64,000 bases of DNA from a virus (lineage: Duplodnaviria > Caudoviricetes). The stretch covers positions 1 through 64,000 of IMG/VR virus record IMGVR_UViG_3300021255_000070; one strand, 5' to 3'. Position numbers and translations under genes: made by a program. Positions 1 through 64,000 of the stretch are shown one piece after another; position 1 is the first letter of the stretch; each line of letters starts with the position of its first letter. Below the pieces are notes generated by a model that saw only the letters and a list, made by a program, of their open reading frames with translations, did no database searches and was not told the origin of the DNA.

Positions 1-657
1 AGTAGAAGAACCATCAAAAGCCTTATAGCTTACTCTGGCACATCTAGCTACAGAAATATCTTTTAATGTATCTATATCTAAGGTATCTTTTTCTTCTTGG
101 TTCACATAAGGTAAATGCCATTCACCTTCATGTAATAATACTGGTTCACTATCATACATAGCTTTATGCATAGCTCTAGCTAAGTCCTGCATTTCTGGCT
201 GTGCATGACTATCTTCTCTTAGCTTAAAGAAGTTCCTAAAGTCAGTAGCTGATAGAACTACCTGAATAGATGAGTATGGTTCAATCAGTCTATTAACAAT
301 CTGTTTATGCAGATTTAAATATCCTAGCTGTTCAGCAAAGGTAGCAGAACCTCTAGCCATCTGGAGCCATACATCCTCTACAGTATTAAGCATAGAAGCC
401 GGTATTTCTCCTGCTCCTACCATACCTTTCTGTTCAATAGTCCAGTGTTTAGGTCCCCAAGGATTATCTTTTACATTCTGGATATTTACCTTAATAGGAG
501 TAGCTCTGGATGAGCGCGCATTACGTGAGAAGACTCTATGAGTCATAATCTCTGAATGAATAGCTCTCCAATACTCTAATTCAAAAGTAGTAAGCCTGAT
601 ACCTTTCTCACTGATACTATCAGCTAGTATTTTTACTCTTGGTTCACAGTTAATCAT
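1..657 (-). CDS. thyX: FAD-dependent thymidylate synthase (ThyX-like), truncated by window edge
   Basis: Not in ORF track. ATG at 657 overlaps the stop of the upstream gene; translates MINCEPRVKILADSISEKGIRLTTFELEYWRAIHSEIMTHRVFSRNARSSRA... and ...SVARCARVSY near base 1, matching phage ThyX motifs. Confidence 0.9.
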   Translation of the reverse strand, partial: MINCEPRVKILADSISEKGIRLTTFELEYWRAIHSEIMTHRVFSRNARSSRATPIKVNIQNVKDNPWGPKHWTIEQKGMVGAGEIPASMLNTVEDVWLQMARGSATFAEQLGYLNLHKQIVNRLIEPYSSIQVVLSATDFRNFFKLREDSHAQPEMQDLARAMHKAMYDSEPVLLHEGEWHLPYVNQEEKDTLDIDTLKDISVARCARVSYKAFDGSST

Positions 658-1837
658 TTAAATCCTCGCTAGTAATAGAAATTAATTTACCAAATGGTAC
701 CTCTGTTTTATCAGTATCTACAGCTACCCAGATAACAGGTGTATCTACTGGTTCCATTGGTTCACAATATAAGTCAGTAAATATAATAGAACAGGTAGGA
801 TGTTTTTCCTGAATAAAATCATGAACACATTTATAAGAAGTACCACCTCCATCTACAACATGGATATTAGTAAATTTATCTCTGTCAGTAAATTCATCTA
901 CTCGACATATTTCAGTATCAAATTGAACCAAGGTAAGAAGTTTAGGATTAAACAGTTCTTTAATATATCTGACTTCTGAATTAAATCTCTTTACCTGTTC
1001 AGGAGTAATACTTCCTGAAATATCTAAAAAGTAAATCAGATGCTCTAATCTGTTCTTCTTTCTCTTGGTTCCCGGTAGATAGATATCAGGATATCTTCTG
1101 TTTCTTTTAATCCATGTTCTTTTAGGATGAGTGGATACATCCTTTAAGAAGTTTCTAAGCAGGATATACCATTTAATCTTGGGATGAAGGAACTCATTCA
1201 TGATATTGGCTAGTTCATTACTGGTTCCATCACCTGCTTCTAAACCACACATATCTTCAAAGCCTTTCTGATTAGCAGCTTTAGCCATTTCATCTGCCTG
1301 CATAATCTTTTGTAGGGCTTCTCCGATAGCAGCATTCATATCTTGACCATCAGGAGGAGGAAGTAAATCATTACTATCAGAACCAAAGTCTTCATTTTTC
1401 TGTTCTGGATCTTCCTTTCTTACTATTTCATAAATACCTTCTTCTGCATGACCTGTGTATCTCTTATCTACAAATCCATGCATAGATTCAATATCAAAGC
1501 CTTTATCCTGTAAGTCGTTATTAACAACTATGTCACAGGCTACATTCCAGTATTTACTATGTCTTCCTTCAGCTCTAAAGTTATGTAATCTGGCTATGTG
1601 CCATAACTCATGTAGTAAAGCAGCCTTACGTTGTTCAATATCTCTTTCCATGAACCAGTCAGGATTAATGAATATCTCTTTGCCGTTAGTAGAGGTTGTA
1701 TCAGTTACTTCTTTATTCCAAGAAATATCTGTATTACTCATAATACTAGCTAGGAAACATCCAAATCCATCATAGGTAAATACACCTACTTTGGTATAGG
1801 ATAGAGCATCAGCTAAATCTTTTTCTGTATATTCCAT
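650..1837 (-). CDS. Metallopeptidase-like/vWA domain protein (N4 gp25-like)
   Basis: HELWH (HExxH) motif, C-terminal vWA MIDAS motif DISGS plus GGGTS; adjacent to AAA ATPase. Confidence 0.85.
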   Translation of the reverse strand: MEYTEKDLADALSYTKVGVFTYDGFGCFLASIMSNTDISWNKEVTDTTSTNGKEIFINPDWFMERDIEQRKAALLHELWHIARLHNFRAEGRHSKYWNVACDIVVNNDLQDKGFDIESMHGFVDKRYTGHAEEGIYEIVRKEDPEQKNEDFGSDSNDLLPPPDGQDMNAAIGEALQKIMQADEMAKAANQKGFEDMCGLEAGDGTSNELANIMNEFLHPKIKWYILLRNFLKDVSTHPKRTWIKRNRRYPDIYLPGTKRKKNRLEHLIYFLDISGSITPEQVKRFNSEVRYIKELFNPKLLTLVQFDTEICRVDEFTDRDKFTNIHVVDGGGTSYKCVHDFIQEKHPTCSIIFTDLYCEPMEPVDTPVIWVAVDTDKTEVPFGKLISITSEDLND

Positions 1838-2953
1838 TTAGAATTTTCCTATAGCTTTATTTTTTTCTCTTTGCTTTCTCTGATATTCAGTAATCTGTTC
1901 AAGTTTATGCTGGAATAATTTATTCTGAGTAATTTCTGGAGTCTGAGTCATTAAAGCTCTATAGAATAATACTTCAAAAGACAGGTCATTAAATCTTGTT
2001 AGATACTGTTCAAAAGAAGATAGATAGCTTTCTTCAAAGTTTTGAAGTAAAGATACAATAGTAAACCATTTGGTATCTGTCTTAGATGGAACTTTAGCTG
2101 TAGTAGGATGATTGATAATATTCTCTAGAGTTTCCATTTCATCTGCTGCTTTACAGAAAGCAGTAAACTGAATAGCTACATCATTAGATATAGTTCCCTG
2201 TAATAAAGCCTGAGTATTAAAATCTAATTTGAAGTTAGGTACTTTTAGAATTCTATTTACAAATTCCCAGCTTCTAGGACAGCAGAATGGTTTACCTTCT
2301 TTCTCTTCATTCTCTGGTTCAAAATCCATAAGTTTATTAGGATATGCAGTCAGGAAAGCAATAATTCTACTATCATAATTTTGTTTGAAAGCTACATTCT
2401 CTCTCCAGTCATCAAAGCTGGTTTTCATATGAATATGAACCAGTCTGGATACCATAGCTGTAGATAAATCATTTACAATAGCTTTATCATTCTTACCATT
2501 ACCTGCACATACAATAAGACATCTGTCATTTAGCTTATACTGACCTACCATTCGGTCTAAAACTAATTTGTAAGCTGCTGCCTGTACTTCTTCAGGTGCA
2601 GAATTAAATTCATCTAAGAATAATAGCCAGCCATTATAACCATCAGGTACTTGGTCTAGGGCAGTAGGGAAAATATCAAATGGAGCAAAAGTAGCAATTT
2701 CTTTTCCATTATCTTTTTTAATGAAATGAGGTAAACCTAGTAAATCAGTTACATCAGAAGTAGATAATCTATGATCTATAACTTTCCATTTCATTTCATC
2801 AGCAATTTCTTTGATAATCTGTGATTTACCAATTCCCGGTGAACCAGTAACAAATGGAACTATACCTGCCTGTAGGCAATCTAAGATATATTGTTTAGCT
2901 GTTGATGGTGGTACTTCTGTAAGTTCTGAAAGACTATTGTTTAAATTAGGCAT
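1838..2953 (-). CDS. MoxR-like AAA+ ATPase (N4 gp24-like)
   Basis: Walker A GSPGIGKS, Walker B LLFLDEFN, sensor AGN, PRSWE motif. Confidence 0.9.
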   Translation of the reverse strand: MPNLNNSLSELTEVPPSTAKQYILDCLQAGIVPFVTGSPGIGKSQIIKEIADEMKWKVIDHRLSTSDVTDLLGLPHFIKKDNGKEIATFAPFDIFPTALDQVPDGYNGWLLFLDEFNSAPEEVQAAAYKLVLDRMVGQYKLNDRCLIVCAGNGKNDKAIVNDLSTAMVSRLVHIHMKTSFDDWRENVAFKQNYDSRIIAFLTAYPNKLMDFEPENEEKEGKPFCCPRSWEFVNRILKVPNFKLDFNTQALLQGTISNDVAIQFTAFCKAADEMETLENIINHPTTAKVPSKTDTKWFTIVSLLQNFEESYLSSFEQYLTRFNDLSFEVLFYRALMTQTPEITQNKLFQHKLEQITEYQRKQREKNKAIGKF

Positions 2954-2996
2954 TTTATTTCCTTATTAAAATGGTAATCTACGAAAGTAGAAATTA

Positions 2997-3455
2997 TTAA
3001 AATGGTATAAATCCAAGTGAAAGACATAAACCATGTGGTTTATCTACATGGTTCAATTCGGTTTCTATAAACCCCACAACATCCTTGCTATGTTCTAATA
3101 GCAGTTTCTTGATTTTGTCCTGTTGCAGATTGATATAGGGAATAGAGCAGTTATCACATAGAGAGGTAAGACTAGGAGGAATATCTGAACCATAGAATAT
3201 AGCCATATTTACTGGCTCAGTAAGATTATTATCAAATAGGGCATAGATATAATCTTCTTTATCTACACCTATATTCTTACAGAAATCTGTAACTAGGTTT
3301 CCATAATTAGTTTCTCTCTGGTCTATTGAACCAGTCTTAATTAAATATCCATGAGCGTGAAATGTGAATATTAAATCATTAGCTAACTTTTCATCTTCCT
3401 CATTCAAATAAGGATTTAGTATTATGTACGCTATTGTCTTCATCTTTTTTATCAT
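2997..3455 (-). CDS. Hypothetical protein
   Basis: 152-aa ORF in the minus-strand operon; start may be 3443. Confidence 0.6.
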   Translation of the reverse strand: MIKKMKTIAYIILNPYLNEEDEKLANDLIFTFHAHGYLIKTGSIDQRETNYGNLVTDFCKNIGVDKEDYIYALFDNNLTEPVNMAIFYGSDIPPSLTSLCDNCSIPYINLQQDKIKKLLLEHSKDVVGFIETELNHVDKPHGLCLSLGFIPF

Positions 3456-4011: not shown

Positions 4012-4023
4012 TGGTTCCTCCTT

Positions 4024-4060
4024 AAAAAAAAATATAGGTCATACCATTACTGGCATGACC
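4024..4060 (-). terminator. Intrinsic terminator after RNAPII subunit 2
   Basis: Minus strand GGTCATGCCA-GTAA-TGGTATGACC followed by TATATTTTTTTTT. Confidence 0.8.
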
Positions 4061-4077
4061 TTTGTATTATTTCCTTA

Positions 4078-6535: not shown

Positions 6536-6563
6536 GAACCAAGAGTATTTCTACTCTTGGTTC
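6536..6563 (-). terminator. GAACCAAG-stem hairpin (terminator or processing site)
   Basis: GAACCAAGAGTA-TTTC-TACTCTTGGTTC, 12-bp perfect stem directly after the gp2-like gene. Confidence 0.7.
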
Positions 6564-6570
6564 ATAATAA

Positions 6571-6972
6571 TTACAGAACTAGACCGTCAAGTAATCCACC
6601 ATTGTTAGTAGATGGTGTAGCATTAACTTTCTGTAGTCTACATACAAGGTTAACTTCGCAACTCTCACCATCTTTTAATGATAGACCTTTCTCTCTAATC
6701 ATTTCCAATAACTGATTAGATGCATTCATTAACTTGTTATAATCTGTATCTTTACCTGATACTTTTCTATCAGGCATATTTGTAAGATCTACACCATATG
6801 GAATAGATACAAATATAGTTGATACAGTACCATCTGGATTGGTAACTTCACGATTAACACCAATGTTAAGATAAAGTTCTGTTGGTTTACGTTCAGGTTT
6901 AGCCTGAGTATTAGCATTAGAAACAATTAAACCGTTAGTATTGTTTGAATTTGAAGATGTAATTAATCCCAT
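6571..6972 (-). CDS. N4 gp2-like ssDNA-binding RNAPII coactivator
   Basis: LYLNIG...FVSIPYGVDL...NQLLEMI...L.DGE...V.RLQKV pattern, 133-aa size and position upstream of RNAPII resemble N4 gp2. Confidence 0.75.
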   Translation of the reverse strand: MGLITSSNSNNTNGLIVSNANTQAKPERKPTELYLNIGVNREVTNPDGTVSTIFVSIPYGVDLTNMPDRKVSGKDTDYNKLMNASNQLLEMIREKGLSLKDGESCEVNLVCRLQKVNATPSTNNGGLLDGLVL

Positions 6973-7020
6973 TTTGAACTACCTCTTAAGTAAGTAAAAT
7001 AAACATTTCGGGAACCATTC

Positions 7021-7040
7021 CCAAGAGGCACGTTAGTGCC
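7021..7040 (-). promoter_or_regulatory. Virion RNAP hairpin promoter (leftward transcription)
   Basis: Template (+) strand CC-AAGAGGCAC-GTTA-GTGCC: CC, 9 nt, then loop G, as in N4 P2 (CC-AAAAGAAGC-GGA-GCTTC). Confidence 0.75.
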
Positions 7041-7059
7041 GACAGTTTAATATCTGTTA

Positions 7060-7102
7060 AAAACAAACGGGCAGGCGTTGGTGCGATAGCACCCGCCTGC
7101 CC
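7060..7102 (-). terminator. GC-rich intrinsic terminator
   Basis: GGGCAGGCG-tt-GGTGC-GATA-GCACC-CGCCTGCCC; on the minus strand followed by GTTTGTTTTT. Confidence 0.65.
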
Positions 7103-7110
7103 TTGTAATA

Positions 7111-7146
7111 AAATATAAGTATAAATATAAGTATAAATATAAATAT
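7111..7146. repeat. AT-rich tandem repeat
   Basis: (AAATATAAGTAT)x2 then (AAATAT)x2. Confidence 0.8.
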
Positions 7147-7201
7147 CTTATTTAATGAGCAGTTTAACCACTTGCTCAGGTGGAGCTTAGGAGGTTGACT
7201 G

Positions 7202-7225
7202 CTAGACTCTATTACTAGAGTCTAG
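7202..7225. repeat. Perfect inverted repeat
   Basis: CTAGACTCTA-TTAC-TAGAGTCTAG directly after the stop of ORF 7238-7459. Confidence 0.75.
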
Positions 7226-7237
7226 TATGTCAACTTA

Positions 7238-7459
7238 CTATTCAGTACCAATACTATACCAAGTAATTAACTTATCCATTACTATTCTCCAAGCTAATAC
7301 CTGATTTATATTTCTAAACTTTCTGATAAATTTATTATTATCTGGTTCTTCTTTTAAACCATAAGTAATCACAAAGTTATTTAGATTTATTTCTGATCTT
7401 GAAGTTACTTCTTCTTTAAACCATTCTTTAATTTCTTTTATATCTTTATTTAAATTCAT
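7238..7459 (-). CDS. Early hypothetical protein
   Basis: 73-aa ORF with GAGG RBS. Confidence 0.7.
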   Translation of the reverse strand: MNLNKDIKEIKEWFKEEVTSRSEINLNNFVITYGLKEEPDNNKFIRKFRNINQVLAWRIVMDKLITWYSIGTE

Positions 7460-7482
7460 AATTTTTTCCTCTCTAAGCTAAA

Positions 7483-7507
7483 GAACCAAGATTGCTAGTC
7501 TTGGTTC
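7483..7507 (-). terminator. GAACCAAG-stem hairpin
   Basis: GAACCAAGA-TTGCTAG-TCTTGGTTC directly after ORF 7512-7727. Confidence 0.6.
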
Positions 7508-7511
7508 CTAA

Positions 7512-7727
7512 TTAATGTAACTCTTTTATTACACCTTCTGGATGCTCTTCATTTGGTGTAATAACTAATGAAACTTCATAGTTCCAATCAGATTGCAGAG
7601 CATCGCATAACTCTGCAATATCTTTGTTGATGTCCTGTAAATAGATTATTAAATCTTTCTTAGAAGATATATGTTCAGGAACATATAGATATCCATACTC
7701 TAATTGATTTTCTACCATTATTTCCAT
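7512..7727 (-). CDS. Early hypothetical protein
   Basis: 71-aa acidic ORF with GAGG RBS. Confidence 0.7.
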   Translation of the reverse strand: MEIMVENQLEYGYLYVPEHISSKKDLIIYLQDINKDIAELCDALQSDWNYEVSLVITPNEEHPEGVIKELH

Positions 7728-7730
7728 TAG

Positions 7731-7787
7731 TTAAATCCTCTTAAACTTAATATGTTTGAATCTATGGAACCAACAACAGAGCTTCAT
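7731..7787 (-). CDS. Possible 18-aa peptide MKLCCWFHRFKHIKFKRI
   Basis: TAATG stop/start overlap with the upstream ORF, AGGAG RBS, fills the gap between two early genes. Confidence 0.45.
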   Translation of the reverse strand: MKLCCWFHRFKHIKFKRI

Positions 7788-7963
7788 TAACTCCTATATA
7801 GTATTTTTATTAATTCCTGTTGGATGGTTACTATTTGTACTAATTTATCTAGTAGTTCGAGTAACTCCCCCTTACTTGTATCCATAGTTATGTCCTGATT
7901 ATTTACTTCTTCTATTAGATAATCTAAATCGTCTAATTTATGTATATAATCATAATCTTTCAT
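7787..7963 (-). CDS. Early hypothetical protein (58 aa)
   Basis: Not in track; MKDYDYIHKLDD...KILYRS, AGGAG RBS. Confidence 0.7.
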   Translation of the reverse strand: MKDYDYIHKLDDLDYLIEEVNNQDITMDTSKGELLELLDKLVQIVTIQQELIKILYRS

Positions 7964-7990
7964 AATTATCTCCTAAACTTTTTTAAACAG

Positions 7991-8017
7991 TTGAACCAAG
8001 GTATTTTCTTGGTTCAA
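7991..8017 (-). terminator. GAACCAAG-stem hairpin
   Basis: TTGAACCAAG-GTATTTT-CTTGGTTCAA directly after ORF 8023-8244. Confidence 0.65.
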
Positions 8018-8022
8018 TTTAT

Positions 8023-8244
8023 TTATAGCTTTTCAAGCTCGCATATATAGCAATTAGATTGAATTAGCCTGCGAAGAATCATATTTAACTTTGATTCTTC
8101 AATAATGCATGTATGAGGACCATGTTCATCCTCATACACGATATGGTACTTTACTATGATGTTTTCCATGTTATCTCCTAATTCTTCTTCTTCTGAAGCA
8201 CATAATTCTCTGATTTGCACAGGTTGTTTCAATAAATATTTCAT
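8023..8244 (-). CDS. Early hypothetical protein
   Basis: 73-aa ORF; the true start may be the internal MENII (AGGAG upstream). Confidence 0.65.
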   Translation of the reverse strand: MKYLLKQPVQIRELCASEEEELGDNMENIIVKYHIVYEDEHGPHTCIIEESKLNMILRRLIQSNCYICELEKL

Positions 8245-8250
8245 GATTAA

Positions 8251-8457
8251 CTACCTCTTGGTTCTATTGATTAACTCTTCAGTAAGTTCTTTATATTCTT
8301 TACTTAGCTTAGCTACTCTTGTTTTACGAGTATCTACATGAGTAAGGATATAAAAATAGTTATCATCACAATCTTCAATATTGAAGCTTATATGAGCTGG
8401 AGTGTTATATATTAACCCGTATATGTATTCTTCAACTATAGATTTCTCTGTATCCAT
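8251..8457 (-). CDS. Early hypothetical protein
   Basis: 68-aa ORF with GAGG RBS, first gene after the 8489-8508 promoter. Confidence 0.75.
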   Translation of the reverse strand: MDTEKSIVEEYIYGLIYNTPAHISFNIEDCDDNYFYILTHVDTRKTRVAKLSKEYKELTEELINRTKR

Positions 8458-8488
8458 AACTACCTCTCTAAACTATTAAACTAATCCA

Positions 8489-8508
8489 CCTATCAGAGCG
8501 AAGCTCTG
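8489..8508 (-). promoter_or_regulatory. Virion RNAP hairpin promoter (leftward transcription)
   Basis: Template strand CC-TATCAGAGC-GAA-GCTCTG: 6-bp stem, C(GAA)G triloop, N4 spacing. Confidence 0.85.
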
Positions 8509-8518
8509 TAAAATAAAA

Positions 8519-8544
8519 GAACCAAAGGTATTTTACTTTGGTTC
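8519..8544 (-). terminator. GAACCAA-stem intrinsic terminator
   Basis: GAACCAAAG(G)TA-TTT-TACTTTGGTTC, followed on the minus strand by TTTTATTTT. Confidence 0.7.
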
Positions 8545-10038: not shown

Positions 10039-10067
10039 TTGAAATAGGTATTTAATGTAACTATAAT
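10039..10067 (+). promoter_or_regulatory. Sigma70-type late promoter
   Basis: TTGAAA-17 nt-TATAAT upstream of the late operon; N4 late transcription uses host RNAP. Confidence 0.7.
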
Positions 10068-10585: not shown

Positions 10586-11311
10586 ATGGATAATACAAAT
10601 AATCTGACTATTGAAGATGTAAAAAGAGCTGTACCAGCTAAACTTAAAGTAGCTATCAATCAGGATATAGTAGATAAGATTAATAACGTATCTAAAGACC
10701 CTGAACTGGCTAAATCTATTCAGGATAACTTTATTACTTATTCCTTGGTTCTAAGAGAAGGAAAATATAAAGTAGAAGATTATCTTAATGCTGTAACCTT
10801 CTGTACTTATAAAGTAATGGGTATGTCTAATGTAGATGCCTATATTAAAACCTTCCCTACAAGACATCAGATGTTATTAGCTAGAGGAGCCACTGAGAAA
10901 GATATATCCAGTTTCGTAGCTAATTACTTCAGAAATAAGATGGTACAGTCTATCTTAGAAAAAACTATTATTCCATTCCATATACTGAATCAAGATGCTA
11001 GGCAGGAAGCTCTTAATACTCAGGTAAAGCTTATGATGACAGCTAAATCTGAGATGGTAAGAATGAAAGCAGCAGATAGTGTTCTAGCTCACACAGAAGC
11101 TCCTACTGCTACCGGTCCTCTACTCAATGTAAACATTGGTAAGTCCTCTGCTATGGAAGATTTAGAGAGAACCATCACAGATTTAGCTAGAATACAGAAG
11201 AAAGCTATTGAAGATAATCTAGTCTCTACTAAAGATATTGCAGAGCAGAGAATTGTAGAAGCTGAAGTAATAGATTCTACTGATGAACCAGAGGAAGAAG
11301 ATTATGAGTGA
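10586..11311 (+). CDS. N4 gp69-like protein (putative terminase small subunit)
   Basis: Position before TerL; YLNAVTFCTYKVMG...NKMVQSILEKTIIP pattern seen in N4-like gp69. Confidence 0.7.
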   Translation: MDNTNNLTIEDVKRAVPAKLKVAINQDIVDKINNVSKDPELAKSIQDNFITYSLVLREGKYKVEDYLNAVTFCTYKVMGMSNVDAYIKTFPTRHQMLLARGATEKDISSFVANYFRNKMVQSILEKTIIPFHILNQDARQEALNTQVKLMMTAKSEMVRMKAADSVLAHTEAPTATGPLLNVNIGKSSAMEDLERTITDLARIQKKAIEDNLVSTKDIAEQRIVEAEVIDSTDEPEEEDYE

Positions 11312-22056: not shown

Positions 22057-22220
22057 TTATATGAAAATATATTTTGTTACCTACCTCTCATTTATCCTTG
22101 GTTCACTAATCTTTTAAACCTTCTAAAGATAGCCTAATTTCTATAGTAATATCCGTCACACTAATCTTATTGAATCCTCTCTAAACTAAATATGTAAATT
22201 CATTTAAAGGAGGATTTACT

Positions 22221-23769: not shown

Positions 23770-23890
23770 TCTTGCTAAACAGGAGGCTTTTAAATTATAC
23801 TTAACAGGTAAACTCAGTAAAGCAATGGTAATTAATATATGTACTGGTATTATTAGTGCTTATCTTGCTGGTTCAGAAAATAAGAAATAA
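23696..23890 (+). CDS. Hypothetical protein
   Basis: 64-aa ORF, AAGGG RBS, stop abuts the tRNA. Confidence 0.55.
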   Translation: MEQQLLQEIEEQVSQTNQSPQEKYSLAKQEAFKLYLTGKLSKAMVINICTGIISAYLAGSENKK

Positions 23891-23962
23891 GGATGTAGTG
23901 TAATGGTAACACCGGAGGTTTTGATCCTCCTATTCTAGGTTCGAGCCCTAGCATCCTTGCCA
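23889..23962 (+). tRNA. tRNA-Gln (UUG)
   Basis: Cloverleaf: acceptor AAGGATG/CATCCTT, D arm GTGT/ACAC, anticodon arm GGAGG-TTTTGAT-CCTCC, T arm CTAGG-TTCGAGC-CCTAG, G73 and encoded CCA. Confidence 0.93.
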
Positions 23963-36926: not shown

Positions 36927-36989
36927 GCCTCTTCTTTGGTTCAAAGAATGAATAAGCTTATCTTGTAACTAATTAAGAGGTAAATACTT

Positions 36990-53633: not shown

Positions 53634-54033
53634 TTATATCTCCATGAATGTATATATCTATTCTTGGATTGGTTCTATCTACTGAACCAAACCTATATAC
53701 TACCTGCCGTAAATAATCGTGATTATCATCTTTAAGATGATTAGATTCAACCAATGCATCACAAAAGAATTTATCAACAATACAGCAAACATTAGCCACA
53801 TCAGAGTGGTTATTTCTCTGAGGATACCAAACGTATTCCACTGTGTATACATATTTAAAGACAGGTAGGTTATTTAATTGAGGTAAGATTAGTTCTTTGT
53901 ACCGTATCTTAATATCATTTAATACATGAAAGTGTGTATTTCTATATACATTAAGATTAAGAGCTATTATTCTATCTTTTTTTGTCTTTCTTGGTATTAC
54001 TATACTTACTGGAGAACTAATCTTATATATCAT
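53617..54033 (-). CDS. RusA-like Holliday junction resolvase
   Basis: LNLNVYRN, DVAN...DKFFCDALV...DDN acidic motif. Confidence 0.8.
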   Translation of the reverse strand: MIYKISSPVSIVIPRKTKKDRIIALNLNVYRNTHFHVLNDIKIRYKELILPQLNNLPVFKYVYTVEYVWYPQRNNHSDVANVCCIVDKFFCDALVESNHLKDDNHDYLRQVVYRFGSVDRTNPRIDIYIHGDINEDSD

Positions 54034-54761
54034 TATTTATCAAAAAGTGAGCTGTGAACTTTCTGAGAACCAGTTGCAGATGCAGTCTTAGGAGCATTAG
54101 TTACTTCCTTATAGTCATCTTTAACTTGGTCTTTCCATTTAGCTTCCCATTTACCTAGGAAGGTTCCAAACTCTAGTTTATCTCTTGCTTCAACAAAAGT
54201 ACACTTATAATCTGGATGGAAGAACTTCTCAATAGAGTTAGTAAACTTCTCTTCTGAGCTATCTACATAAGTATCACCGCTCTTTACACGCTTATTCTCT
54301 CTCTTCTTAAGAATAGCTACTAAGACTTTCTTATCTAATAATCCAGTAAGTACAGGTGCTAGAGTTGGTTCCTCTTTCTGAGTATCAAAGTTATATAACT
54401 TAATCTCTTTCTCTTCAGATTCTTGAGCAGATAGAGGTTTCTCAGTTACTAGCTCACATAGGTCATCAATGTTACTGAAACCCGGTAGAGGAATCTTCTT
54501 GTTGTTCTGGTTCAACCAATATGGATGACCTTCTTTATTGGTAATCCACATAGTCTCTCTGTACTCAGTACCATCATCAAGGTTAAGAATTAAACCAATA
54601 CCCTGAGCTTTAGTATTCTGTGACTTAACTAGATATGCAGCTTTAACTACAGCATTATAAATGCCTGATTCTTTAATAAAGCCTTCACCACCACTTACTC
54701 GGTCAGTGGTTTTTTCCATATCTTTAGTTTCATCAGCTAGATTTGCAAATAAATTTGCCAT
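54033..54761 (-). CDS. Single-stranded DNA-binding protein (N4 gp45-like)
   Basis: ESGIYNAVVKAAY, YRETMWIT, LPGF, NSIEKFFH; ends SSLF. Confidence 0.85.
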   Translation of the reverse strand: MANLFANLADETKDMEKTTDRVSGGEGFIKESGIYNAVVKAAYLVKSQNTKAQGIGLILNLDDGTEYRETMWITNKEGHPYWLNQNNKKIPLPGFSNIDDLCELVTEKPLSAQESEEKEIKLYNFDTQKEEPTLAPVLTGLLDKKVLVAILKKRENKRVKSGDTYVDSSEEKFTNSIEKFFHPDYKCTFVEARDKLEFGTFLGKWEAKWKDQVKDDYKEVTNAPKTASATGSQKVHSSLFDK

Positions 54762-54764
54762 TTA

Positions 54765-55493
54765 TTAACTCCTATAGTAGTTATTTAAGTGATCTAACAA
54801 GATTTGACAATCATTATCCATAAAGGTCTGACTCTTATTGAATAGACCCATAGGACTTCTGATTCTGGTATTAACAGTGTCTTTAGTTACACGAGTCTGG
54901 AAGACATATTTAAATCCTAAATCTTCCTCTTCTTCAGAAATATTTAATAAATCTGATTTATAGTCCTTTAGTTTAACTAAAGGCATTTTCTGAGAATAAA
55001 CAATAGTAGAGAAATATGCTTCAATACCTGTGCCTTTTAAAGCACCCTTTACAGGAACTGAGGTCTTAGTTTCAAGTGTCTTTTCATCATAAGTATCTGC
55101 AATATGAGCTATGAATATAACTGGTTTACCAAATTTAATAACTCTATCTTGTAAGATAGATTTAAAGAATTGATTATATTCACTCCATGCTTTCATGGTA
55201 TTGGTAGCTGTTAATACATATTGAGATTCATACATCTCCATTAAGAAGGTAAGTGAATCTACAATAATACCTTCACAGTTTGGGTCTTCAGCTCCATGAT
55301 CGAATGCTTCAAATATCTGCATTGGATCTTCTAATCTGAATTCCCTAAAATTAGACTTGAAAGGCAACTTCTTACCTGCTTCAGTATTAAGATAATACCA
55401 TTTTTCTTGGTTCCTGATATTTCTTAAACTAGCTGACTTACCTGAACCAGATAAGCCACCTATTAGAATGAGCTGATCATTAGTATCACTCAT
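54765..55493 (-). CDS. AAA-family ATPase (N4 gp44/Sak4-like)
   Basis: Walker A GLSGSGKS, Walker B IIVDS, RIRSPMGLF. Confidence 0.85.
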   Translation of the reverse strand: MSDTNDQLILIGGLSGSGKSASLRNIRNQEKWYYLNTEAGKKLPFKSNFREFRLEDPMQIFEAFDHGAEDPNCEGIIVDSLTFLMEMYESQYVLTATNTMKAWSEYNQFFKSILQDRVIKFGKPVIFIAHIADTYDEKTLETKTSVPVKGALKGTGIEAYFSTIVYSQKMPLVKLKDYKSDLLNISEEEEDLGFKYVFQTRVTKDTVNTRIRSPMGLFNKSQTFMDNDCQILLDHLNNYYRS

Positions 55494-57684
55494 TGGTTCT
55501 ATCTCCTATTTTCTTAGCTGCGGTTTTTAGACATGTATTAGCTAACTCCTCTTCTGGTAGAGGGTTAGGTAATCTTTTATTAAATCCCTTAACAAGTTTT
55601 TCAACATCTTCTAAAGATTTACCTGAGTCTACAAGAGCCATAGTATATCTAAGCATATAGTTATTTCTATTGCCTACATCCATCTTCTGGATGAACCATC
55701 TCTCTAAAGCACCTAGGTCTGCAAGTTTCTTGTCCTTGAACTGTTTATTATAAATATCATTACTTCTACTTCCCGGAATAAATGGAAGTACATTGAACAG
55801 TTTTCCCTGATGGTCAAGAACAATACCTTTAGGATTGGTTTCCCATTTATGAGAAATATCCTTAACCATCTCATCACAGGTAAAAGGTAAATAAGTAAGT
55901 ATATTAGACATAAATTGGCTAAATTCTTCCTTATTTAATTCTAATTCATGTGACATTGGAATTAAGATACGGTATCTATTCTGTTCAGTAGTATGACGCT
56001 TGGTTGTATAGATAATATAGGAATAATCCTCTAGGATATTCTGAGCCAAGGTAATAGGTGTACCGTCATCTATATCTAGAATAATAGTATTAAATCTACC
56101 TATTACATCTTCATTACATCTATGACCATTACCATTTACTTCGCAAGCAAAGTGATGATTACAGAAATGCAATGGTTCTCCTGCTTTATCAGGAGATTCC
56201 ATGGTTCCTAATCGTTTCAGATTATCCCAAGAGAGTTCATCGTTATAATAATTAAAAGCAAAGTCAGTACTGTAACTAATAATACTGCTATCACCTGAAC
56301 TGTTGTTTAACTGCTTACCACTTAAGAACTCAATATCATCATTATATCTGGATGTAATAAGAATATTATGATCTAGTCCCCAAGCTTTAGCTAAAGACAG
56401 CATATCTTTCTTATTAGAACTTCCCTTAAAGAAGGGTAATTCTTCTACAATTTCTGCATGAGTTACTTCATGAGTCTGTTCACTAATAAATTTAGCTAAC
56501 TTCATATGAGGTAGGTCTCTAGTAAGAATCTTAGTGAAAGCATTACCTGATTCTTCTACTAGCTTGATTGCTTGGTTCAAATGAGTTTCAGTAATATCTG
56601 GACTTACATCTACGAAAGCAAATGCACCTGCTAGTTTAAGAGCTTTAAAATATCTATTAGATACTTCAGTTTTCTGCAATAGCTGAGATGCTTTAAACTT
56701 CTCTGCTTTCTCTTCACATTCCATCTTATATTCCTGTAACTTAATACCTATATCATCAGGTAGATTTACAGAATAGTTATACATATTCTGGTCTGCAAGA
56801 GAAGCAAAGTGTGATGACCATTTAGCAGCTATAGCATCATTCTGAGGGTCACATAAATCATCATAGATTTCTTTAGGAGTTCTATTCTGATAATTGATAG
56901 AAGATGTATTCTTACCCATACAGAATAGAGTTCTTCTAGCATATCCTGTTCTTAGATAAGCATAGAAGTTATCTTCTATGGTTCCACCATCTAGCAGAGC
57001 ATATGGCTCTCCAAATAACAGCATATTAGCTGGAGTAGAACCATCCAAGTCTTCACCTCTGGATGAACTGTCTGTATTCTTAGTTAATTTCTGCTTGGTA
57101 AAGCCTTTATCAAATAGTTCTAAGAACATATTTAAGGCTTCCCCTGAATCTGTAAGATTCATGCCAATCTCATCAATCTGTAGATTAATAGAACCAATGC
57201 CTGCCATTAACAGTTTCTGTCTCATTTGCTTAATAGCTGGTCCGGTAGCAGAATCAAAAGTAAATAAATAAGAACCAAGTTTATTATATTCTTGGGTTAT
57301 TAATTTAATTTCTTCTGCTTGACTGGTATGATTATTAACAGATCTAGTAGTAGCCATATCTGCAAGATGCTTTTGTGCAAATGCCGGCATAGTATCCTGT
57401 AGAAAAGCTACTCGGAAGTCTCTGATAATATTCTCTTCCATAAAATTAACACTAAAATTCTTACCATAACCTGAAGGAGCCAAGGCTAATACATAAGTAT
57501 TAATTGGTATGGTTCCTAAGTGTTTGGTAACAATATTAGCTCGCATACAGGCTGCCATCTTGCCGATATAATAGGTAACGATGGTTCTGAAGAAAGCCTT
57601 ATCTGTACTCTGTTTCTTTTTACAGAGTACATCAGTTATTTCTTCAATAGGCTGAAAATGCTGAACTGTACTTAAATCAATCAT
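55486..57684 (-). CDS. DNA primase (N4 gp43-like; NTPase plus AEP/PriCT)
   Basis: LAPSGYGKN, IDEIG; ILDIDDG, YTTKRH and GNRNN..LRY C-terminal primase motifs. Confidence 0.85.
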   Translation of the reverse strand: MIDLSTVQHFQPIEEITDVLCKKKQSTDKAFFRTIVTYYIGKMAACMRANIVTKHLGTIPINTYVLALAPSGYGKNFSVNFMEENIIRDFRVAFLQDTMPAFAQKHLADMATTRSVNNHTSQAEEIKLITQEYNKLGSYLFTFDSATGPAIKQMRQKLLMAGIGSINLQIDEIGMNLTDSGEALNMFLELFDKGFTKQKLTKNTDSSSRGEDLDGSTPANMLLFGEPYALLDGGTIEDNFYAYLRTGYARRTLFCMGKNTSSINYQNRTPKEIYDDLCDPQNDAIAAKWSSHFASLADQNMYNYSVNLPDDIGIKLQEYKMECEEKAEKFKASQLLQKTEVSNRYFKALKLAGAFAFVDVSPDITETHLNQAIKLVEESGNAFTKILTRDLPHMKLAKFISEQTHEVTHAEIVEELPFFKGSSNKKDMLSLAKAWGLDHNILITSRYNDDIEFLSGKQLNNSSGDSSIISYSTDFAFNYYNDELSWDNLKRLGTMESPDKAGEPLHFCNHHFACEVNGNGHRCNEDVIGRFNTIILDIDDGTPITLAQNILEDYSYIIYTTKRHTTEQNRYRILIPMSHELELNKEEFSQFMSNILTYLPFTCDEMVKDISHKWETNPKGIVLDHQGKLFNVLPFIPGSRSNDIYNKQFKDKKLADLGALERWFIQKMDVGNRNNYMLRYTMALVDSGKSLEDVEKLVKGFNKRLPNPLPEEELANTCLKTAAKKIGDRTNE

Positions 57685-58633
57685 TAAAGTATTGTCTCCT
57701 TTGCTGACATATAGGTGCAGCAGGGCATAGCTTACATCTCTTTACTTCACCCTTTACTTCTCTAACTACACCTTTACCTTTCTCTAAACAAAACTTATTA
57801 GCTTCTGCTAATGAGTCAAAGTTCTTTGTAGCTTTAGAAGCAGTAGGATTTGCATAGTATTTATACTTAGTATCACTACGCCATAATTCTTCATCAGTAC
57901 ACTCAGGAATGTCTTCTTCTTTAGCATCCCAGTACTTAGTAATAAGAGCTAGTTTCTCTTTAATCCATTTTTCTGTTTCAGGAATAGATAATAGAGGGTA
58001 ATCCTTATACATAATCTTATGCTGAGGATAATCTTTATTAGTTAGAGCCAAGGCATTCTGCCAATCTGTAAAGATAAAACAGATACGTACAAAGTCAGAG
58101 GTTACTTTGTCTTGGTTCAACCATCTATAAATACTTCCCTGTAATCTATACTTTTCATCCATACCACCATATACCCATGTATATGCTGAAGTAGATTTAA
58201 AGTCATGTAGAATACCATCACCTATATAATCAAACTTACCACCTATCTTGTAACCATCTATTTCTTTAATAGAACGCTGTTCAATATAGACAGGTATCTG
58301 ACCATCTTCTACCTTTTCAGGATTGATAACTATTTTATCGGCTACAGATTTATTAAAGCCTAGAAACTCAAGAGTCTTTCTGTAATCACTATAGAGCCAA
58401 GCCTTCTCAATACCATCATGGATACTGGTTCCCATAACAGCAGGTACAAAGCTGGATATGTCAGTAGTAATGAAATTATCATTTACTCTTGGTCTTAAGA
58501 TAAGTTGTTTGAGGGGATTAAGTAACTGAGTAGCTGAGATATACTTCTCATCTTGAATATGGTCATATTCATCATGAGCTAGCCATACTTGTAATGGTAA
58601 AGGTATATCCCACTCATTTGTTAAGTTCATCAA
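57677..58633 (-). CDS. PD-(D/E)xK nuclease (N4 gp42-like)
   Basis: ISATQLL, GTSIHDGIE, GKFD...HDFKSTS, QGSIYRW, C-terminal CKLC...CQQ. Confidence 0.85.
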   Translation of the reverse strand: MMNLTNEWDIPLPLQVWLAHDEYDHIQDEKYISATQLLNPLKQLILRPRVNDNFITTDISSFVPAVMGTSIHDGIEKAWLYSDYRKTLEFLGFNKSVADKIVINPEKVEDGQIPVYIEQRSIKEIDGYKIGGKFDYIGDGILHDFKSTSAYTWVYGGMDEKYRLQGSIYRWLNQDKVTSDFVRICFIFTDWQNALALTNKDYPQHKIMYKDYPLLSIPETEKWIKEKLALITKYWDAKEEDIPECTDEELWRSDTKYKYYANPTASKATKNFDSLAEANKFCLEKGKGVVREVKGEVKRCKLCPAAPICQQRRQYFND

Positions 58634-59336
58634 TATACTCCTTAACTAGATTGATTAGTTCTGGTTCTGTAAGATTATTTGGAAGAGATAATTCATGTGC
58701 CCAATCTGGGTAGAAGATAGATAATTCACCTCCTAAGTGAACGTCTGGATGTCTGATTTCTGGTTCATCCTGCCAAGATACTGCTTTATTTAGCTCTGTA
58801 TTGACCCATAGAACCACTTCAGGGATATCTCTGATAATAAAGTACTGAGCATCATGAATTTGTGCTACAGGTTTAATATATTCACGGTATGGACTATTCT
58901 CTACTTTAGTCATAAATTCAATACCTGCTCTGGTATTTAATAATCCATAGGATTGACCCAGAGCATTACCAGCAGTTCTTCTTTCTGCTTCAGCTTCATG
59001 AGGAGTCTTACTGGTTCCCATAATAGCCTGTTTCATCTTATGGGTTCTGACTCTTAAACCAAAAGCTACATCTACATAACCATTCTTTTCAGCAGATTCT
59101 AGTCTTTTATTAACCCATTCATCTGATTCTTTATAGAGTTCATGATAAGCATTGTAGATTTGTTCTGCTTCTTTCTGAGAGAAGCCTTGGTTCTTAACTA
59201 AGGTAGAAGGAGTTCCTCCATAAGTAAGAGCAAAGGTACAGGTTTTAGACTTCTGTCTTAAATCCTTATGCTTATTTTTGATAGAGTTAATAATTTCTAC
59301 TTCTGCTTCCTGTTTAGAGATTTCCTCTATCTTCAT
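58614..59336 (-). CDS. DNA polymerase family A, C-terminal fragment (motifs B and C)
   Basis: RQKSKTCTFALTYGG (motif B), RTAGNALGQSYGLLN, AQIHDAQYF (motif C); own AGGAG RBS. Confidence 0.92.
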   Translation of the reverse strand: MKIEEISKQEAEVEIINSIKNKHKDLRQKSKTCTFALTYGGTPSTLVKNQGFSQKEAEQIYNAYHELYKESDEWVNKRLESAEKNGYVDVAFGLRVRTHKMKQAIMGTSKTPHEAEAERRTAGNALGQSYGLLNTRAGIEFMTKVENSPYREYIKPVAQIHDAQYFIIRDIPEVVLWVNTELNKAVSWQDEPEIRHPDVHLGGELSIFYPDWAHELSLPNNLTEPELINLVKEYIDELNK

Positions 59337-59347
59337 AGAAGCTCCTA

Positions 59348-59521: not shown

Positions 59522-59535
59522 AGTTTATCTCCTAA

Positions 59536-59576: not shown

Positions 59577-59578
59577 AG

Positions 59579-59986: not shown

Positions 59987-59994
59987 ATAAACTC

Positions 59995-60462: not shown

Positions 60463-60475
60463 TATATGTCTCCTT

Positions 60476-60511
60476 AAAAAAGAGCCTAGTATAAAATCAT
60501 ACTAGGCTTAT
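60476..60511 (-). terminator. Intrinsic terminator inside the split-polymerase interval
   Basis: Minus strand AGCCTAGTAT-GATTTT-ATACTAGGCT-CTTTTT. Confidence 0.75.
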
Positions 60512-60587
60512 AACACTACAAAAAGGTATTAGTTGATTTATCTATTTTTAACAACTATCCTATTTTTAATATCTTCAAACAATAAAT

Positions 60588-61157
60588 CTAAATTAGAGTA
60601 ATATTCTCTTTAATATCTTCTAAGAATTTTTTGAGATTTAACTCATAATGCATATTTTCAAAACCTGTATCCCAATCTGCTTCATATGGTCTATTAGTTT
60701 TAGGATTAAAAGTATTACCTTTTTTAGGAATATAAGCTCTTAGATTATTCTTATCATCCAGATACATAATAAAGAATGTAGGATATTCATCATCTTCATT
60801 AGAATTACAAATAATAATAGGAAAACCATCTTTTACATATAAATACAGATTTTCCATTTGTTGATATCCATCATTTTCCTCATAAAATTCTTTTATATAT
60901 TCTTCTGGTTCTTGATTTCTTGAATCTTCCCAAGGATTTTCTTCAAAATCATTATAGCGAGTATTAAAGTCTTCCCATAAGCTACAACCTTCACTAAAAC
61001 CCATAGGAATATCTAAATCTTTCTCTACTATTTTAGGAAATACATCATAAAACATTTCACCAGCATCATCTTCTTCTGCTTTTAAATAATAATTTCTAAT
61101 AGTATTTACTAATTCATCCATAGTATGTTTAGTTGTAAATCTAGGAAATTTATTCAT
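60588..61157 (-). CDS. Hypothetical protein
   Basis: 189-aa acidic ORF with LRAYIPKKGNTFNP segment. Confidence 0.7.
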   Translation of the reverse strand: MNKFPRFTTKHTMDELVNTIRNYYLKAEEDDAGEMFYDVFPKIVEKDLDIPMGFSEGCSLWEDFNTRYNDFEENPWEDSRNQEPEEYIKEFYEENDGYQQMENLYLYVKDGFPIIICNSNEDDEYPTFFIMYLDDKNNLRAYIPKKGNTFNPKTNRPYEADWDTGFENMHYELNLKKFLEDIKENITLI

Positions 61158-61158
61158 T

Positions 61159-61557
61159 TTATTCTTCCTTTACCTTTTCAAGGTATTTAAAACTCTTTTC
61201 AATAGGATATCTTAATGGTGGATATTCAAAGCCTTTAGAATAAGGCATACCTATTTCTAAAGTAACTTTTGTACCATCATTTTTAATTACCATAATTTGA
61301 TATTTAGATAATTGTTCAAAAAGTTTATAAATACATAACATCCTTTCATAGCAAACATTTAAATATTCAAATTCATAAGTCATATTGAATAAGTAATATT
61401 CTTTATTATCTGTATATATGTAAGTTTCCTGAGTTAGTAATCCATCATCTGCAACTGATTTAAATGCATATTTATAAGCACTTCTGTTAGCTTTACCTTT
61501 ATGAATTACTTCTTTGAACTCATCTTTAGGAACCAACATATAAATTTTACAGTTCAT
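61159..61557 (-). CDS. Hypothetical protein
   Basis: 132 aa; its RBS and ATG lie inside the last codons of the polymerase N-fragment. Confidence 0.7.
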   Translation of the reverse strand: MNCKIYMLVPKDEFKEVIHKGKANRSAYKYAFKSVADDGLLTQETYIYTDNKEYYLFNMTYEFEYLNVCYERMLCIYKLFEQLSKYQIMVIKNDGTKVTLEIGMPYSKGFEYPPLRYPIEKSFKYLEKVKEE

Positions 61558-63478
61558 TCTGATACTCCTTTAATTTAGGATTATTTTCATTCAGGTATTC
61601 TATGGTTCCATCATCATGAGTAACTTTATAGACCTTACCTTCTTTCTTAATCTCTTCTAACTGTTCTGTAATATCTGGCATCTGGTCTTTGAAATAAGAA
61701 TAACTTCGTAAGCAATGACCATCATAATGCTCCAGATATACCTTTAATTTATTTTTATCTTTGGTTGTAAGAGCACTAATTCTATCTTCCAAAGATGCAA
61801 AGTCTTCACCAACAAAGAGCCAATCAGGAGGTGGACTAAAACATTTCTTAATAGTTTTAGCATATTTAGAACCAGTAGCTGGTAAGTTCTGTAAGTTAGG
61901 ACTATTACTGCTTAATCTACCTGATACAGTACCTCCTAGACGGAAATTACCACATAAATAGTACCATCCATCAGGAGCTTTATATGCTTTCTTAAAAGCA
62001 GGTATAAAAGCAGTAAGAATCTTATTTACATCTGAAAAATCAATAAGAGCATCTATTAAGTCTAATACAGCCTGATAGGTAGTCTTATTCTTAAGAGCTT
62101 TAAGAGTATCAGCACTTGTACTTGGTTCACCTGAATCAGTTTTAAATATCACAGGAAAAGCTAACATATCATAGAATAGCTCTTTCAACTGAAGATTAGA
62201 ATTAGGATTAAATTCTTCATGTGCATCAGCTATAGTTACTCTCTTTTTCTTTAGAGTCTTATTCTTTCTCTGTACCCATTGCTGGTTCAAATAGTTAGTA
62301 AATTTAACTACAATGTGATTAGACATTATTCTCTGTAGAGCATCTGCCTTATCCTGTTCTAACTGTTTTTCTGTTTCTAAGACTTTATCCATATCTAATG
62401 GAAGACCATTTAGCTGCATTTGAATAATGCCTTTAATAGCTGGTTTAAATAGAGTCTCATAGATAACTTTCTGGTTATCATCTATCATCTTCTGATAATG
62501 TTTATGATATACATACCAAGTAGCTAAACCATCTATAAGGTTATATTTCAGTAAATCAGCAGTAGGTATTTTAGATACATCACCTATTTCATCCTGTGCC
62601 CAGTTACCTGCAAATTCCTGAGCCTGTTCCTTAAGAGATAAGCTATTACCACTAGCACTATTAGTAGCTAGATAAGTAATCAGCATAGTGTCATCAAAGT
62701 CTCTTAATAAAGTATTTAGACCTTCATACATACCTTTAATATCTAGGAAATCTTTCATAAATAACTGATAGGTAAGTACGTATACATCAAAGGATATATT
62801 ATGAAATATCAGAGTACCTTTATAGTTTTTAAAGAACCAAGTAAGTTCCTGTCTTACTGCCGTATTCTGTATTTCTTGGCTCGTATCTACTTTAAAGGCT
62901 ATACCCTTATGCATACTCCAACAGAAAGTAATAGAAGCTATACCTGCATCATAGTGCTTTAAGGAATAAGTCTCTATATCACAGGTAAGCTTTGGATAAC
63001 TTAGAAGAGTATCAAGATATTTATGAATTTCAGTAGGAGTAGATGGATAATAAGCTTCATCTATAATTTCAGTACCGGGTTCCTTATAAGTATTCCCGGC
63101 ATGAGCTAATACAGCTTCTAGTGATTGCTTAATCTTATCTCTGGTTTCATCTGGTTTATAGAAAATACCATCTACAGAAGGAGTATAGGTAATAAAGAAG
63201 TTTTTAAGAGGAAAGATATAACCAACCAAGGTATTAGGCTTGCATGGTCCATGTAATGCTTTGAACCATTCAGCATCACAGATAATCAGATATTTACTGT
63301 CACTGAAGTTATCCTGATTATTATCAAACCAGTCTCTCATTTCTTTGACAGATGGTTTCTTCTTACCTAATGGATTCCATAAGGTAATAGTTCTACATTC
63401 TTCAGGAGGTAAATATTTATGATATTCTGTTGCTATACGGCTTGGTTGGTTCTTATTAACAAAGATAGTGTATTTCAT
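61547..63478 (-). CDS. DNA polymerase family A, N-terminal fragment (3'-5' exonuclease to motif A)
   Basis: Exo I CDIET, Exo II FHNISFDV, Exo III YNLID, GTVSGRLSS..PNLQNLP, motif A EDFASLEDRI, DGHCLRSY; no motif B or C. Confidence 0.93.
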   Translation of the reverse strand: MKYTIFVNKNQPSRIATEYHKYLPPEECRTITLWNPLGKKKPSVKEMRDWFDNNQDNFSDSKYLIICDAEWFKALHGPCKPNTLVGYIFPLKNFFITYTPSVDGIFYKPDETRDKIKQSLEAVLAHAGNTYKEPGTEIIDEAYYPSTPTEIHKYLDTLLSYPKLTCDIETYSLKHYDAGIASITFCWSMHKGIAFKVDTSQEIQNTAVRQELTWFFKNYKGTLIFHNISFDVYVLTYQLFMKDFLDIKGMYEGLNTLLRDFDDTMLITYLATNSASGNSLSLKEQAQEFAGNWAQDEIGDVSKIPTADLLKYNLIDGLATWYVYHKHYQKMIDDNQKVIYETLFKPAIKGIIQMQLNGLPLDMDKVLETEKQLEQDKADALQRIMSNHIVVKFTNYLNQQWVQRKNKTLKKKRVTIADAHEEFNPNSNLQLKELFYDMLAFPVIFKTDSGEPSTSADTLKALKNKTTYQAVLDLIDALIDFSDVNKILTAFIPAFKKAYKAPDGWYYLCGNFRLGGTVSGRLSSNSPNLQNLPATGSKYAKTIKKCFSPPPDWLFVGEDFASLEDRISALTTKDKNKLKVYLEHYDGHCLRSYSYFKDQMPDITEQLEEIKKEGKVYKVTHDDGTIEYLNENNPKLKEYQNEL

Positions 63479-63984
63479 ACTAATAACTCATATGCTTCAT
63501 ACTGATTAATACGAGGAATTATAATTTCTTCATAAAACTTTTTTAAGTTATCTTTTATTTCTGGTTCAGATTCTCTTACCCACTGAGGTACTATCTTTTT
63601 GATAAAAGAATCAAAGATACTAGGCAGATTATTGAACATCTCTCCATTATCTTTTGAACCAAAGCATTGGGAAGCAATGAAGGTAGTAATAAACTTTCTA
63701 TCCTGTTCAATGGTTTCTTTGGTTTTCTTGTACTGTTCTAGTTTATCTACAAGGGCTAAATTTAAAGTACAAAGATTGTTCTTATCATGACTGAAGTTAA
63801 GAGAAGGATTGAAATAGCAATAACCTCTAAATTTAAATCCATAAGAGACTACTGTCTGTTCATTATTCAATTCAGAATTCTGTTTGATTAATTTAGTAAG
63901 ATAAGTATTTAGATATTTCTTAGGATTCTTAAAGATGCTATCAATCAATTCTTCTCTAGTATCATAGATTGAATATTTACTCAT
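63475..63984 (-). CDS. N4 gp38-like hypothetical protein
   Basis: Position directly upstream of the polymerase with ATGA overlap; no catalytic motif recognised. Confidence 0.6.
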   Translation of the reverse strand: MSKYSIYDTREELIDSIFKNPKKYLNTYLTKLIKQNSELNNEQTVVSYGFKFRGYCYFNPSLNFSHDKNNLCTLNLALVDKLEQYKKTKETIEQDRKFITTFIASQCFGSKDNGEMFNNLPSIFDSFIKKIVPQWVRESEPEIKDNLKKFYEEIIIPRINQYEAYELLV

Positions 63985-64000
63985 AAAATACTCCCAAATT

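Follow-up and report, generated by a model that had tools for sequence, protein, structure and literature searches.

We investigated the distribution of the asymmetric hexamer TGGTTC (GAACCA on the complementary strand) in the first 64 kb (positions 1 to 64,000, hereafter the window) of the IMG/VR record IMGVR_UViG_3300021255_000070 (73,746 bp, G+C 33%), which, judged by its gene content, is an N4-like podovirus of the family Schitoviridae. The results support the conclusion that the word is kept at high density in Schitoviridae genomes as a DNA-level signal under selection. A preliminary description of this sequence had proposed a selectively maintained signal, and the proposal holds: the excess survives shuffling, and the word ranks first both in occupancy of available positions and in conservation of individual sites.

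Exact counting gave 216 copies in the window against a zero-order expectation of 21.9 (9.9-fold), which places the word at the top of all 2080 hexamer pairs; the whole genome carries 245 copies. These values agree with the roughly 210 copies, expectation of about 20 and 10-fold excess first described, and the partial counts given there (20 in the first 4 kb, about 100 by 29.2 kb) become 19 and 101. The codon contexts quoted at 10742 and 27011 are exact. The copies are distributed as follows, with two intergenic examples.

Positions 1..64000, both strands (134 on +, 82 on −): dispersed copies of TGGTTC/GAACCA by exact count, plus 55 copies of TGGCTC.
Positions 22099..22104, + strand: intergenic copy, outside all called open reading frames (ORFs).
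Positions 36937..36942, + strand: intergenic copy, outside called ORFs, in a short palindromic context (TTTGGTTCAAAG).

Permuting codons within genes leaves 40.6 copies expected in coding sequences, where 201 are seen. Synonymous shuffling that keeps the proteins and codon usage raises the expectation for the same 201 copies to 67.1 +/- 6.5 (z = 20.5), and shuffling that also keeps junction dinucleotides raises it to 74.9 +/- 6.8 for 216 copies (z = 20.7), so that the excess is not removed when protein, codons, and junction dinucleotides are all preserved. The word is in excess in all six frame and orientation classes, including a 7-10-fold excess in the three classes least tied to the dipeptides Gly-Ser and Glu-Pro; outside called ORFs there are 28 copies in 5.0 kb, a density at least that of coding DNA. 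The statement that copies occur in all frames and between genes is thereby borne out. As a measure free of codon usage we used occupancy, the share of peptide-compatible positions that carry the word. Occupancy is 214/389 = 0.55, first among 2068 words (median of all words 0.05). Copies are spread evenly without clusters, with a mean spacing of 296 bp in the window, and a search for regular spacing or limited per-strand gaps found neither, the spacing being Poisson-like. The longest word-free stretch (2.6 kb, genome positions 68955-71544) lies past the end of the window among small − strand ORFs, and may be DNA acquired too recently to have been reshaped.

The effective motif, read 5′ to 3′, is H-TGG-Y-T-C. 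Positions 1, 2, 3, 5, and 6 are strict, a single substitution at any of them removing the excess, and position 4 accepts either pyrimidine (T 3.3-fold and C 3.0-fold over shuffles). The recurrent TGGCTC variant and the flank bias that had been noticed by inspection are both real: TGGCTC reaches 55 copies in the window (about 5-fold over composition) and 60 in the coding DNA of the genome (3.0-fold over shuffles), and G is avoided on both flanks (3% at −1, 2% at +1). The core tetramer GTTC/GAAC is only about 1.4-fold over composition (548 copies against about 400 expected). One-mismatch neighbors at positions 1 and 2 are reduced to 0.4-0.7-fold in this phage, a depletion that is weak or absent in N4. 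A likeness to the tRNA T-arm or B-box (GGTTCGA) was considered and rejected, the base after the word being almost never G.

The preliminary description implied a peculiarity of one genome; this did not stand, the word being a trait of most Schitoviridae tested, including N4, and not of one phage or host. We ranked 2080 hexamers, genome by genome, by their excess over synonymous shuffles, metagenomic relatives (those with L numbers) having been obtained by protein search and then contig look-up. Using the capsid protein to scan viral and metagenome contigs for close relatives yielded two short fragments only. The ranks and top words were:

TGGTTC first: this phage, N4, Shigella phage Moo19, Rhizobium phage Y2_6, L012, L013, L015, and L016.
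TGGTTC second: Vibrio phage VCO139 (TTGGTT first) and L017.
TGGTTC third: Roseovarius phage 1.
Variant TGGCTT as top word: Pseudomonas phage LIT1 (z 20).
Variant TGGTTT as top word: Acinetobacter phage Ab2712 (z 11).
Variant TGGTTA as top word, weakly: Vibrio phage 1.261.O.

In N4 there are 201 copies against 65 expected (z 18), with an occupancy of 0.56, and occupancy exceeds one half in this phage, N4, and most relatives tested. The family motif is TGG-Y-T-X, where the sixth base X is constant within a clade and is C, T, or A depending on the clade. LIT1 and Ab2712 have another sixth base although their homologues of the gp43 primase-helicase are 41-42% identical to that of this phage. One further word in the hexamer ranking, CCGGGA (z 9.5), was set aside as noise, consisting of eight scattered unrelated copies.

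Individual sites are also conserved. In codon alignments with L012 and L013 (73-76% capsid identity), 42% of copies occur at the same aligned position, which makes TGGTTC the most position-conserved of 578 hexamers (median of all words about 13%); the refuting condition named in the preliminary description, conservation in relatives no higher than that of control hexamers, therefore does not hold. Many copies are new in the relatives, and retention and turnover thus go together. By the same shuffle ranking, TGGTTC is only 78th to 1187th in lambda, T5, phiKMV, ICP3, and SIO1 (z <= 3.2), and T7 shows no excess (z 1.9). In the Escherichia coli K-12 chromosome CTGGTTC stands at about 1.3-fold, its density being 0.16 per kb where N4 has 1.5. 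These controls from phages of the same host and from the host chromosome argue against a Chi site, an uptake sequence, and host codon bias; a DNA uptake sequence (DUS/USS) was rejected because the word is independent of the host and is not over-represented in E. coli.

The word is also biased between strands. Late genes occupy the + strand from 10.1 to 53.2 kb, and the − strand carries the early and middle ones. Raw counts favor the late-gene coding strand in this phage (154:91), in N4 (130:90), and in VCO139 (298:226), and the bias persists within the early and middle genes, for which the favored strand is the template. Ratios of observed to expected copies had at first looked coding-related, but the motif itself shapes the expectation, and they were replaced by occupancy. 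Occupancy on the favored (late-gene coding) strand and on the other strand, each pair giving the values for two gene classes, was:

This phage: favored strand 0.63 / 0.69; other strand 0.36 / 0.57.
N4: favored strand 0.67 / 0.60; other strand 0.45 / 0.52.
VCO139: favored strand 0.61 / 0.57; other strand 0.40 / 0.41.

In these three genomes the strand ratio is about 1:1 at the left end of the N4 map and climbs to about 2:1 at the right end (P = 0.009, 0.011, and 0.032), and no polarity switch point occurs along the genome. For this phage the physical ends were placed near contig position 10,050 on the basis of gene order.

We consider it most likely, if a little short of an even chance, that the word is the template site at which the gp43 primase-helicase initiates primer synthesis, on the lagging or displaced strand. 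Both gp43 as the reader and priming as the activity are what we infer; the enrichment, its occurrence through most of the family, the conservation of sites, the strand bias with its gradient, and the fold are observed. Among the four roles suggested in the preliminary description, a primase site fits best and a phage DNA-binding protein is possible; phosphorothioation and a host Chi signal are disfavored. The candidate reader and two of its neighbors in the replication module are:

Positions 55486..57684, − strand: gp43-like ("dns") primase-helicase, candidate reader (PHROG 2135 "DNA primase", E 4e-273; Pfam PriCT_1 and DUF3987).
Positions 57677..58633, − strand: N4 gp42-like exonuclease, adjoining the primase (PHROG 2139, E 3e-129).
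Positions 54033..54761, − strand: N4SSB-like single-stranded DNA binding protein (PHROG 743, E 3e-64).

The gp43-like product is 47% identical to N4 gp43. Its N-terminal part carries DUF3987, an AAA+ helicase of MCM type, and matches MCM chains in Foldseek. AlphaFold models of the protein have pLDDT values of 83 and 88, the latter for residues 431-732, and Foldseek matches this segment to the cyanophage S-2L PrimPol (6zp9), RSF1010 RepB′ (3h20), the LigD polymerase, and the AEP domains of poxvirus D5/E5. The modeled C-terminal part is predicted to be an archaeo-eukaryotic-type primase (AEP) domain with a PriCT_1 helical bundle. A sequence search of the PDB with gp43 gave no matches. The Walker A residues G72-G74-K75 and the motif D537-x-D539 are invariant across 36 homologues. 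All Schitoviridae genomes examined have a gp43 homologue, whichever motif variant they carry, and tblastn returned 470 phage records with a homologue, all of them Schitoviridae among the matches listed.

Under this proposal the AEP domain and its helical bundle would read the word on single-stranded DNA, and synthesis would start opposite the pyrimidine beside a noncopied 3′ base, giving the primer pppA-R-C-C-A if base 6 is cryptic, or pppR-C-C-A if base 5 is cryptic. By chance, a site of 6-7 nt would be expected about once in 6 kb of each strand of this AT-rich genome. Selection would have filled more than half of the synonymous opportunities, so as to bring TGGYTC to one copy per 0.4-0.6 kb per strand; the high occupancy would be explained by a strict site being too rare by chance. 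The grammar of the word, with T5 invariant, a clade-specific sixth base, and Y at position 4, appears compatible with a primase site by analogy with known ones; the sites of T4 (GTT/GCT) and of T7 (GTC with a cryptic C) show similar behavior. As to the strand bias, N4 DNA synthesis is reported (PMC3896407, citing earlier work) to begin at the genome ends, with the right end preferred. Whether by forks or by strand displacement, synthesis from the right end would make the late-coding strand the displaced or lagging template, in need of primers, which fits both the bias and its gradient.

The method was checked on a primase whose site is established. T7 primase recognizes 5′-(G/T)(G/T)GTC-3′ with a cryptic C, and starts pppACCA at TGGTC (PMC12839067). 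The same ranking places TGGTC third among 512 pentamers in T7 and sixth in ICP3, against 177th in lambda and 180th in phiKMV, and TGGTC leans to the lagging-strand template of the dominant fork (88:42 in ICP3; 70:53 to the right of the T7 origin). We know of no prior description of TGGTC over-representation beyond codon usage in T7 and ICP3. The T7 gp4 system resembles the one proposed here in its short asymmetric word, single-stranded template, and noncopied 3′ base, and TGGTC with one added T is TGGTTC. It differs in that gp4 is a zinc-finger enzyme of the DnaG/TOPRIM type and gp43 is predicted to have an AEP fold, and in that the T7 site is degenerate and about 1.5-fold enriched, whereas a 6-7-nt word is 3.3-fold enriched here and fills 55% of possible positions.

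Two other primase systems are also informative. RSF1010 RepB′, which acts at ssiA/ssiB, and pRN1 ORF904, which acts at GTG, share with the gp43 model both a helical bundle and an AEP catalytic domain; RepB′ (3h20) is among the top structural matches of the modeled C-terminal part. The helical bundle gives RepB′ and ORF904 their template-sequence specificity. Unlike the hundreds of dispersed hexamers here, these enzymes use one or two origin sites or a trinucleotide. T4 gp61 primase sites are GTT/GCT, so that a pyrimidine is tolerated where the first (purine) nucleotide is templated, as with Y at position 4; unlike TGGTTC, however, a trinucleotide site needs no genome-wide enrichment.

Several observations weigh against priming at the word by gp43. 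The strand bias is only about 60:40, and in the right half of the genome it coincides with late-gene orientation, hence our reliance on the occupancy control. LIT1 shows no strand gradient by the same test. Single strands have gaps of 2.6-5.5 kb, and spacing is Poisson-like rather than regular. The T7 footprint, about 1.5-fold over shuffles, is far weaker than the 3.3-fold excess and 55% occupancy found here. All core family genes co-vary equally with the motif variants, so profiling cannot single out the primase. Finally, four early-gene hairpins (6536-8544), three of them terminator-like, have stems built from inverted copies of the word (GAACCAAG / CTTGGTTC), and those at 6536, 7483, 7989, and 8519 are unexplained by priming:

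Positions 6536..6563, − strand: hairpin after an early gene, terminator-like by scan match, with a 12-bp stem (GAACCAAG... / ...CTTGGTTC) and followed by a T-rich tail.
Positions 7483..7507, − strand: early-region hairpin, stem GAACCAAGA / TCTTGGTTC, from sequence.
Positions 7989..8019, − strand: early-region hairpin with a stem that includes TTGAACCAAG / CTTGGTTCAA, terminator-like by scan match.
Positions 8519..8544, − strand: early-region hairpin, GAACCAAAG...CTTTGGTTC and then TTTTATTTT on the − strand, terminator-like on both strands.

On the − strand, the last of these immediately precedes (5′) a CAGAGC-TTC-GCTCTG hairpin, a type that in N4 serves as promoter for the virion RNA polymerase (vRNAP).

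Strand bias could also mark a cue for another tracking machine encoded by the phage; we regard this as unlikely. Examples would be a signal that, like Chi, attenuates a nuclease or recombinase coming from the left end, which is injected first, or a cue for the motor of packaging or ejection. A genome-wide bias without a switch point is what such a machine would predict, and the density and Poisson-like spacing recall density-acting signals of the Chi type. The left end of N4 enters the cell first (PMC4496689), and on the geometry that we reconstruct, copies on the favored strand would be oriented as Chi sites are for entry from that end. On the same reconstructed geometry, however, a protective signal should flip near the right end, yet the bias peaks there. 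The Chi sites of host RecBCD/AddAB differ by host, whereas the word is identical in phages of Escherichia, Vibrio, Rhizobium, and Roseovarius, and it is not over-represented in E. coli or in other coliphages. For a packaging cue the difficulty is that we know of no terminase that requires a dispersed word. A hotspot of the host Chi type was rejected, the word being common to phages of Escherichia, Shigella, Vibrio, Rhizobium, and Roseovarius, and its orientation at the right end being, on this geometry, inactive for entry there. Chi (GCTGGTGG, read by E. coli RecBCD) and KOPS, which orients FtsK, are like the present word in being dispersed, strand-biased, over-represented oligomers read by tracking enzymes and acting by density; they are unlike it in being signals of host chromosomes for host enzymes, whereas this word is specific to a phage family and independent of the host.

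A binding site for a phage protein that coats duplex DNA, such as a nucleoid-like, transcription, or condensation factor, is in our judgment quite unlikely. An asymmetric word of 6-7 bp, dense and in both orientations, would suit such a protein, the inverted pairs in the stems of the four early-region hairpins could be its sites, and an Hc1-like protein is present (Pfam Hc1 in the relative L012). Nondirectional binding, however, predicts neither a strand bias nor a gradient, the spacing shows no lattice, and Hc1-like genes, unlike the word, do not extend through the whole family.

The density might instead have been produced by a mutational or repair drive that converts near-cognate sites, through a process like very-short-patch repair or through retained primers of fixed sequence, and this we hold to be improbable. 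It is consistent with the very high occupancy and with an excess of compatible peptides, visible in a synonymous-shuffle expectation (67) that is larger than the codon-permutation expectation (41), and in 5.6 compatible positions per kb here against 3.9 in T7 and lambda. The depletion of one-mismatch neighbors at positions 1 and 2 in this phage points the same way, and a drive would also predict both site conservation and turnover. Against it, no enzyme for such a process was identified, the neighbor depletion is weak or absent in N4, and selection explains the same data. A version that links drive to priming is that the word propagates itself, short gp43 primers of fixed sequence (complementary to TGGYTC), tolerant of a mismatch and partly retained, writing the word at near-cognate sites; we think this very doubtful. 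The corresponding footprint of primer imprinting would be the 55% occupancy, the excess of compatible peptides, and the one-mismatch depletion, beyond what selection for priming density would leave.

A target or mimic of DNA modification, by phosphorothioation at GAAC/GTTC or CCA or by another base modification, is highly improbable. The hexamer does include the core motifs of Dnd (GAAC/GTTC) and Ssp (CCA), but the core GTTC/GAAC is barely enriched and the excess is specific to the full hexamer; the word is common to phages of unrelated hosts, and the products scanned, about 30 and thus part of the gene set, included no recognizable modification gene. The least likely reading, an artifact of codon usage, dipeptide content, or codon-pair preference, is refuted: Gly-Ser (GGT TCN) and Glu-Pro (GAA CCA) supply 120 of the 201 coding copies, but z is about 21 under shuffles that preserve protein, codons, and junctions, the excess extends to the frames least tied to these dipeptides and to noncoding DNA at equal or higher density, and there is none in T7, lambda, or T5, which share the host of N4.

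In open-access papers and preprints we found none that ties TGGTTC/GAACCA to a primase or to N4-like phages. Although N4 has served as a model phage for decades, we found no report that its genome, like those of most of the family, is saturated by one strand-biased hexamer. If the word is indeed the start site of gp43, it would provide a first handle on lagging-strand priming in Schitoviridae, would make gp43 an AEP primase that recognizes 6-7 nt, and would show a replication enzyme strongly shaping the choice of codons and even the proteins themselves. With a sixth base (C, T, or A) that differs by clade, the family supplies natural variants in which the determinants of specificity could be mapped. 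The word is also a simple sequence signature for N4-like contigs and a constraint to be respected when such phages are recoded.

The contig ends carry a common 107-bp direct repeat. An ORF of 4213 aa encodes the virion RNA polymerase (Pfam vRNAP_dom is found in relatives), and the capsid protein is of the N4 gp56 type, with a best isolate identity of <=58%. A T7-like RNA polymerase subunit, a family A polymerase, and a gp44-like AAA_24 protein are also encoded. The family A DNA polymerase is in two pieces on the − strand, 58614-59336 and 61547-63478, 2.2 kb apart; the 643-aa ORF covers positions 11-211 of Pfam DNA_pol_A and a 3′-5′ exonuclease, and the 240-aa ORF covers positions 198-339. A gp24/gp25-like pair at 650-2953 (− strand) consists of a MoxR-type AAA ATPase and a DUF2201 metallopeptidase-like/VWA protein, the second of which bears the PHROG label "HNH endonuclease" without Pfam support. 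A single tRNA gene, tRNA-Gln(TTG), is at 23889-23962 (+ strand). Just upstream of the first late gene, at 10039-10067 (+ strand), is a near-consensus promoter of the sigma-70 type (TTGAAA, 17 nt, TATAAT), which sits in the 140-bp gap expected to hold the physical ends of the genome. Copies of GATC are about 4-fold fewer than expected, 59 in the genome against 224 (53 in the window); N4 has 1 where 258 would be expected, ICP3 has 0, and Vibrio phage 1.261.O has 4. The depletion suggests that the host uses Dam methylation or restricts DNA at GATC.

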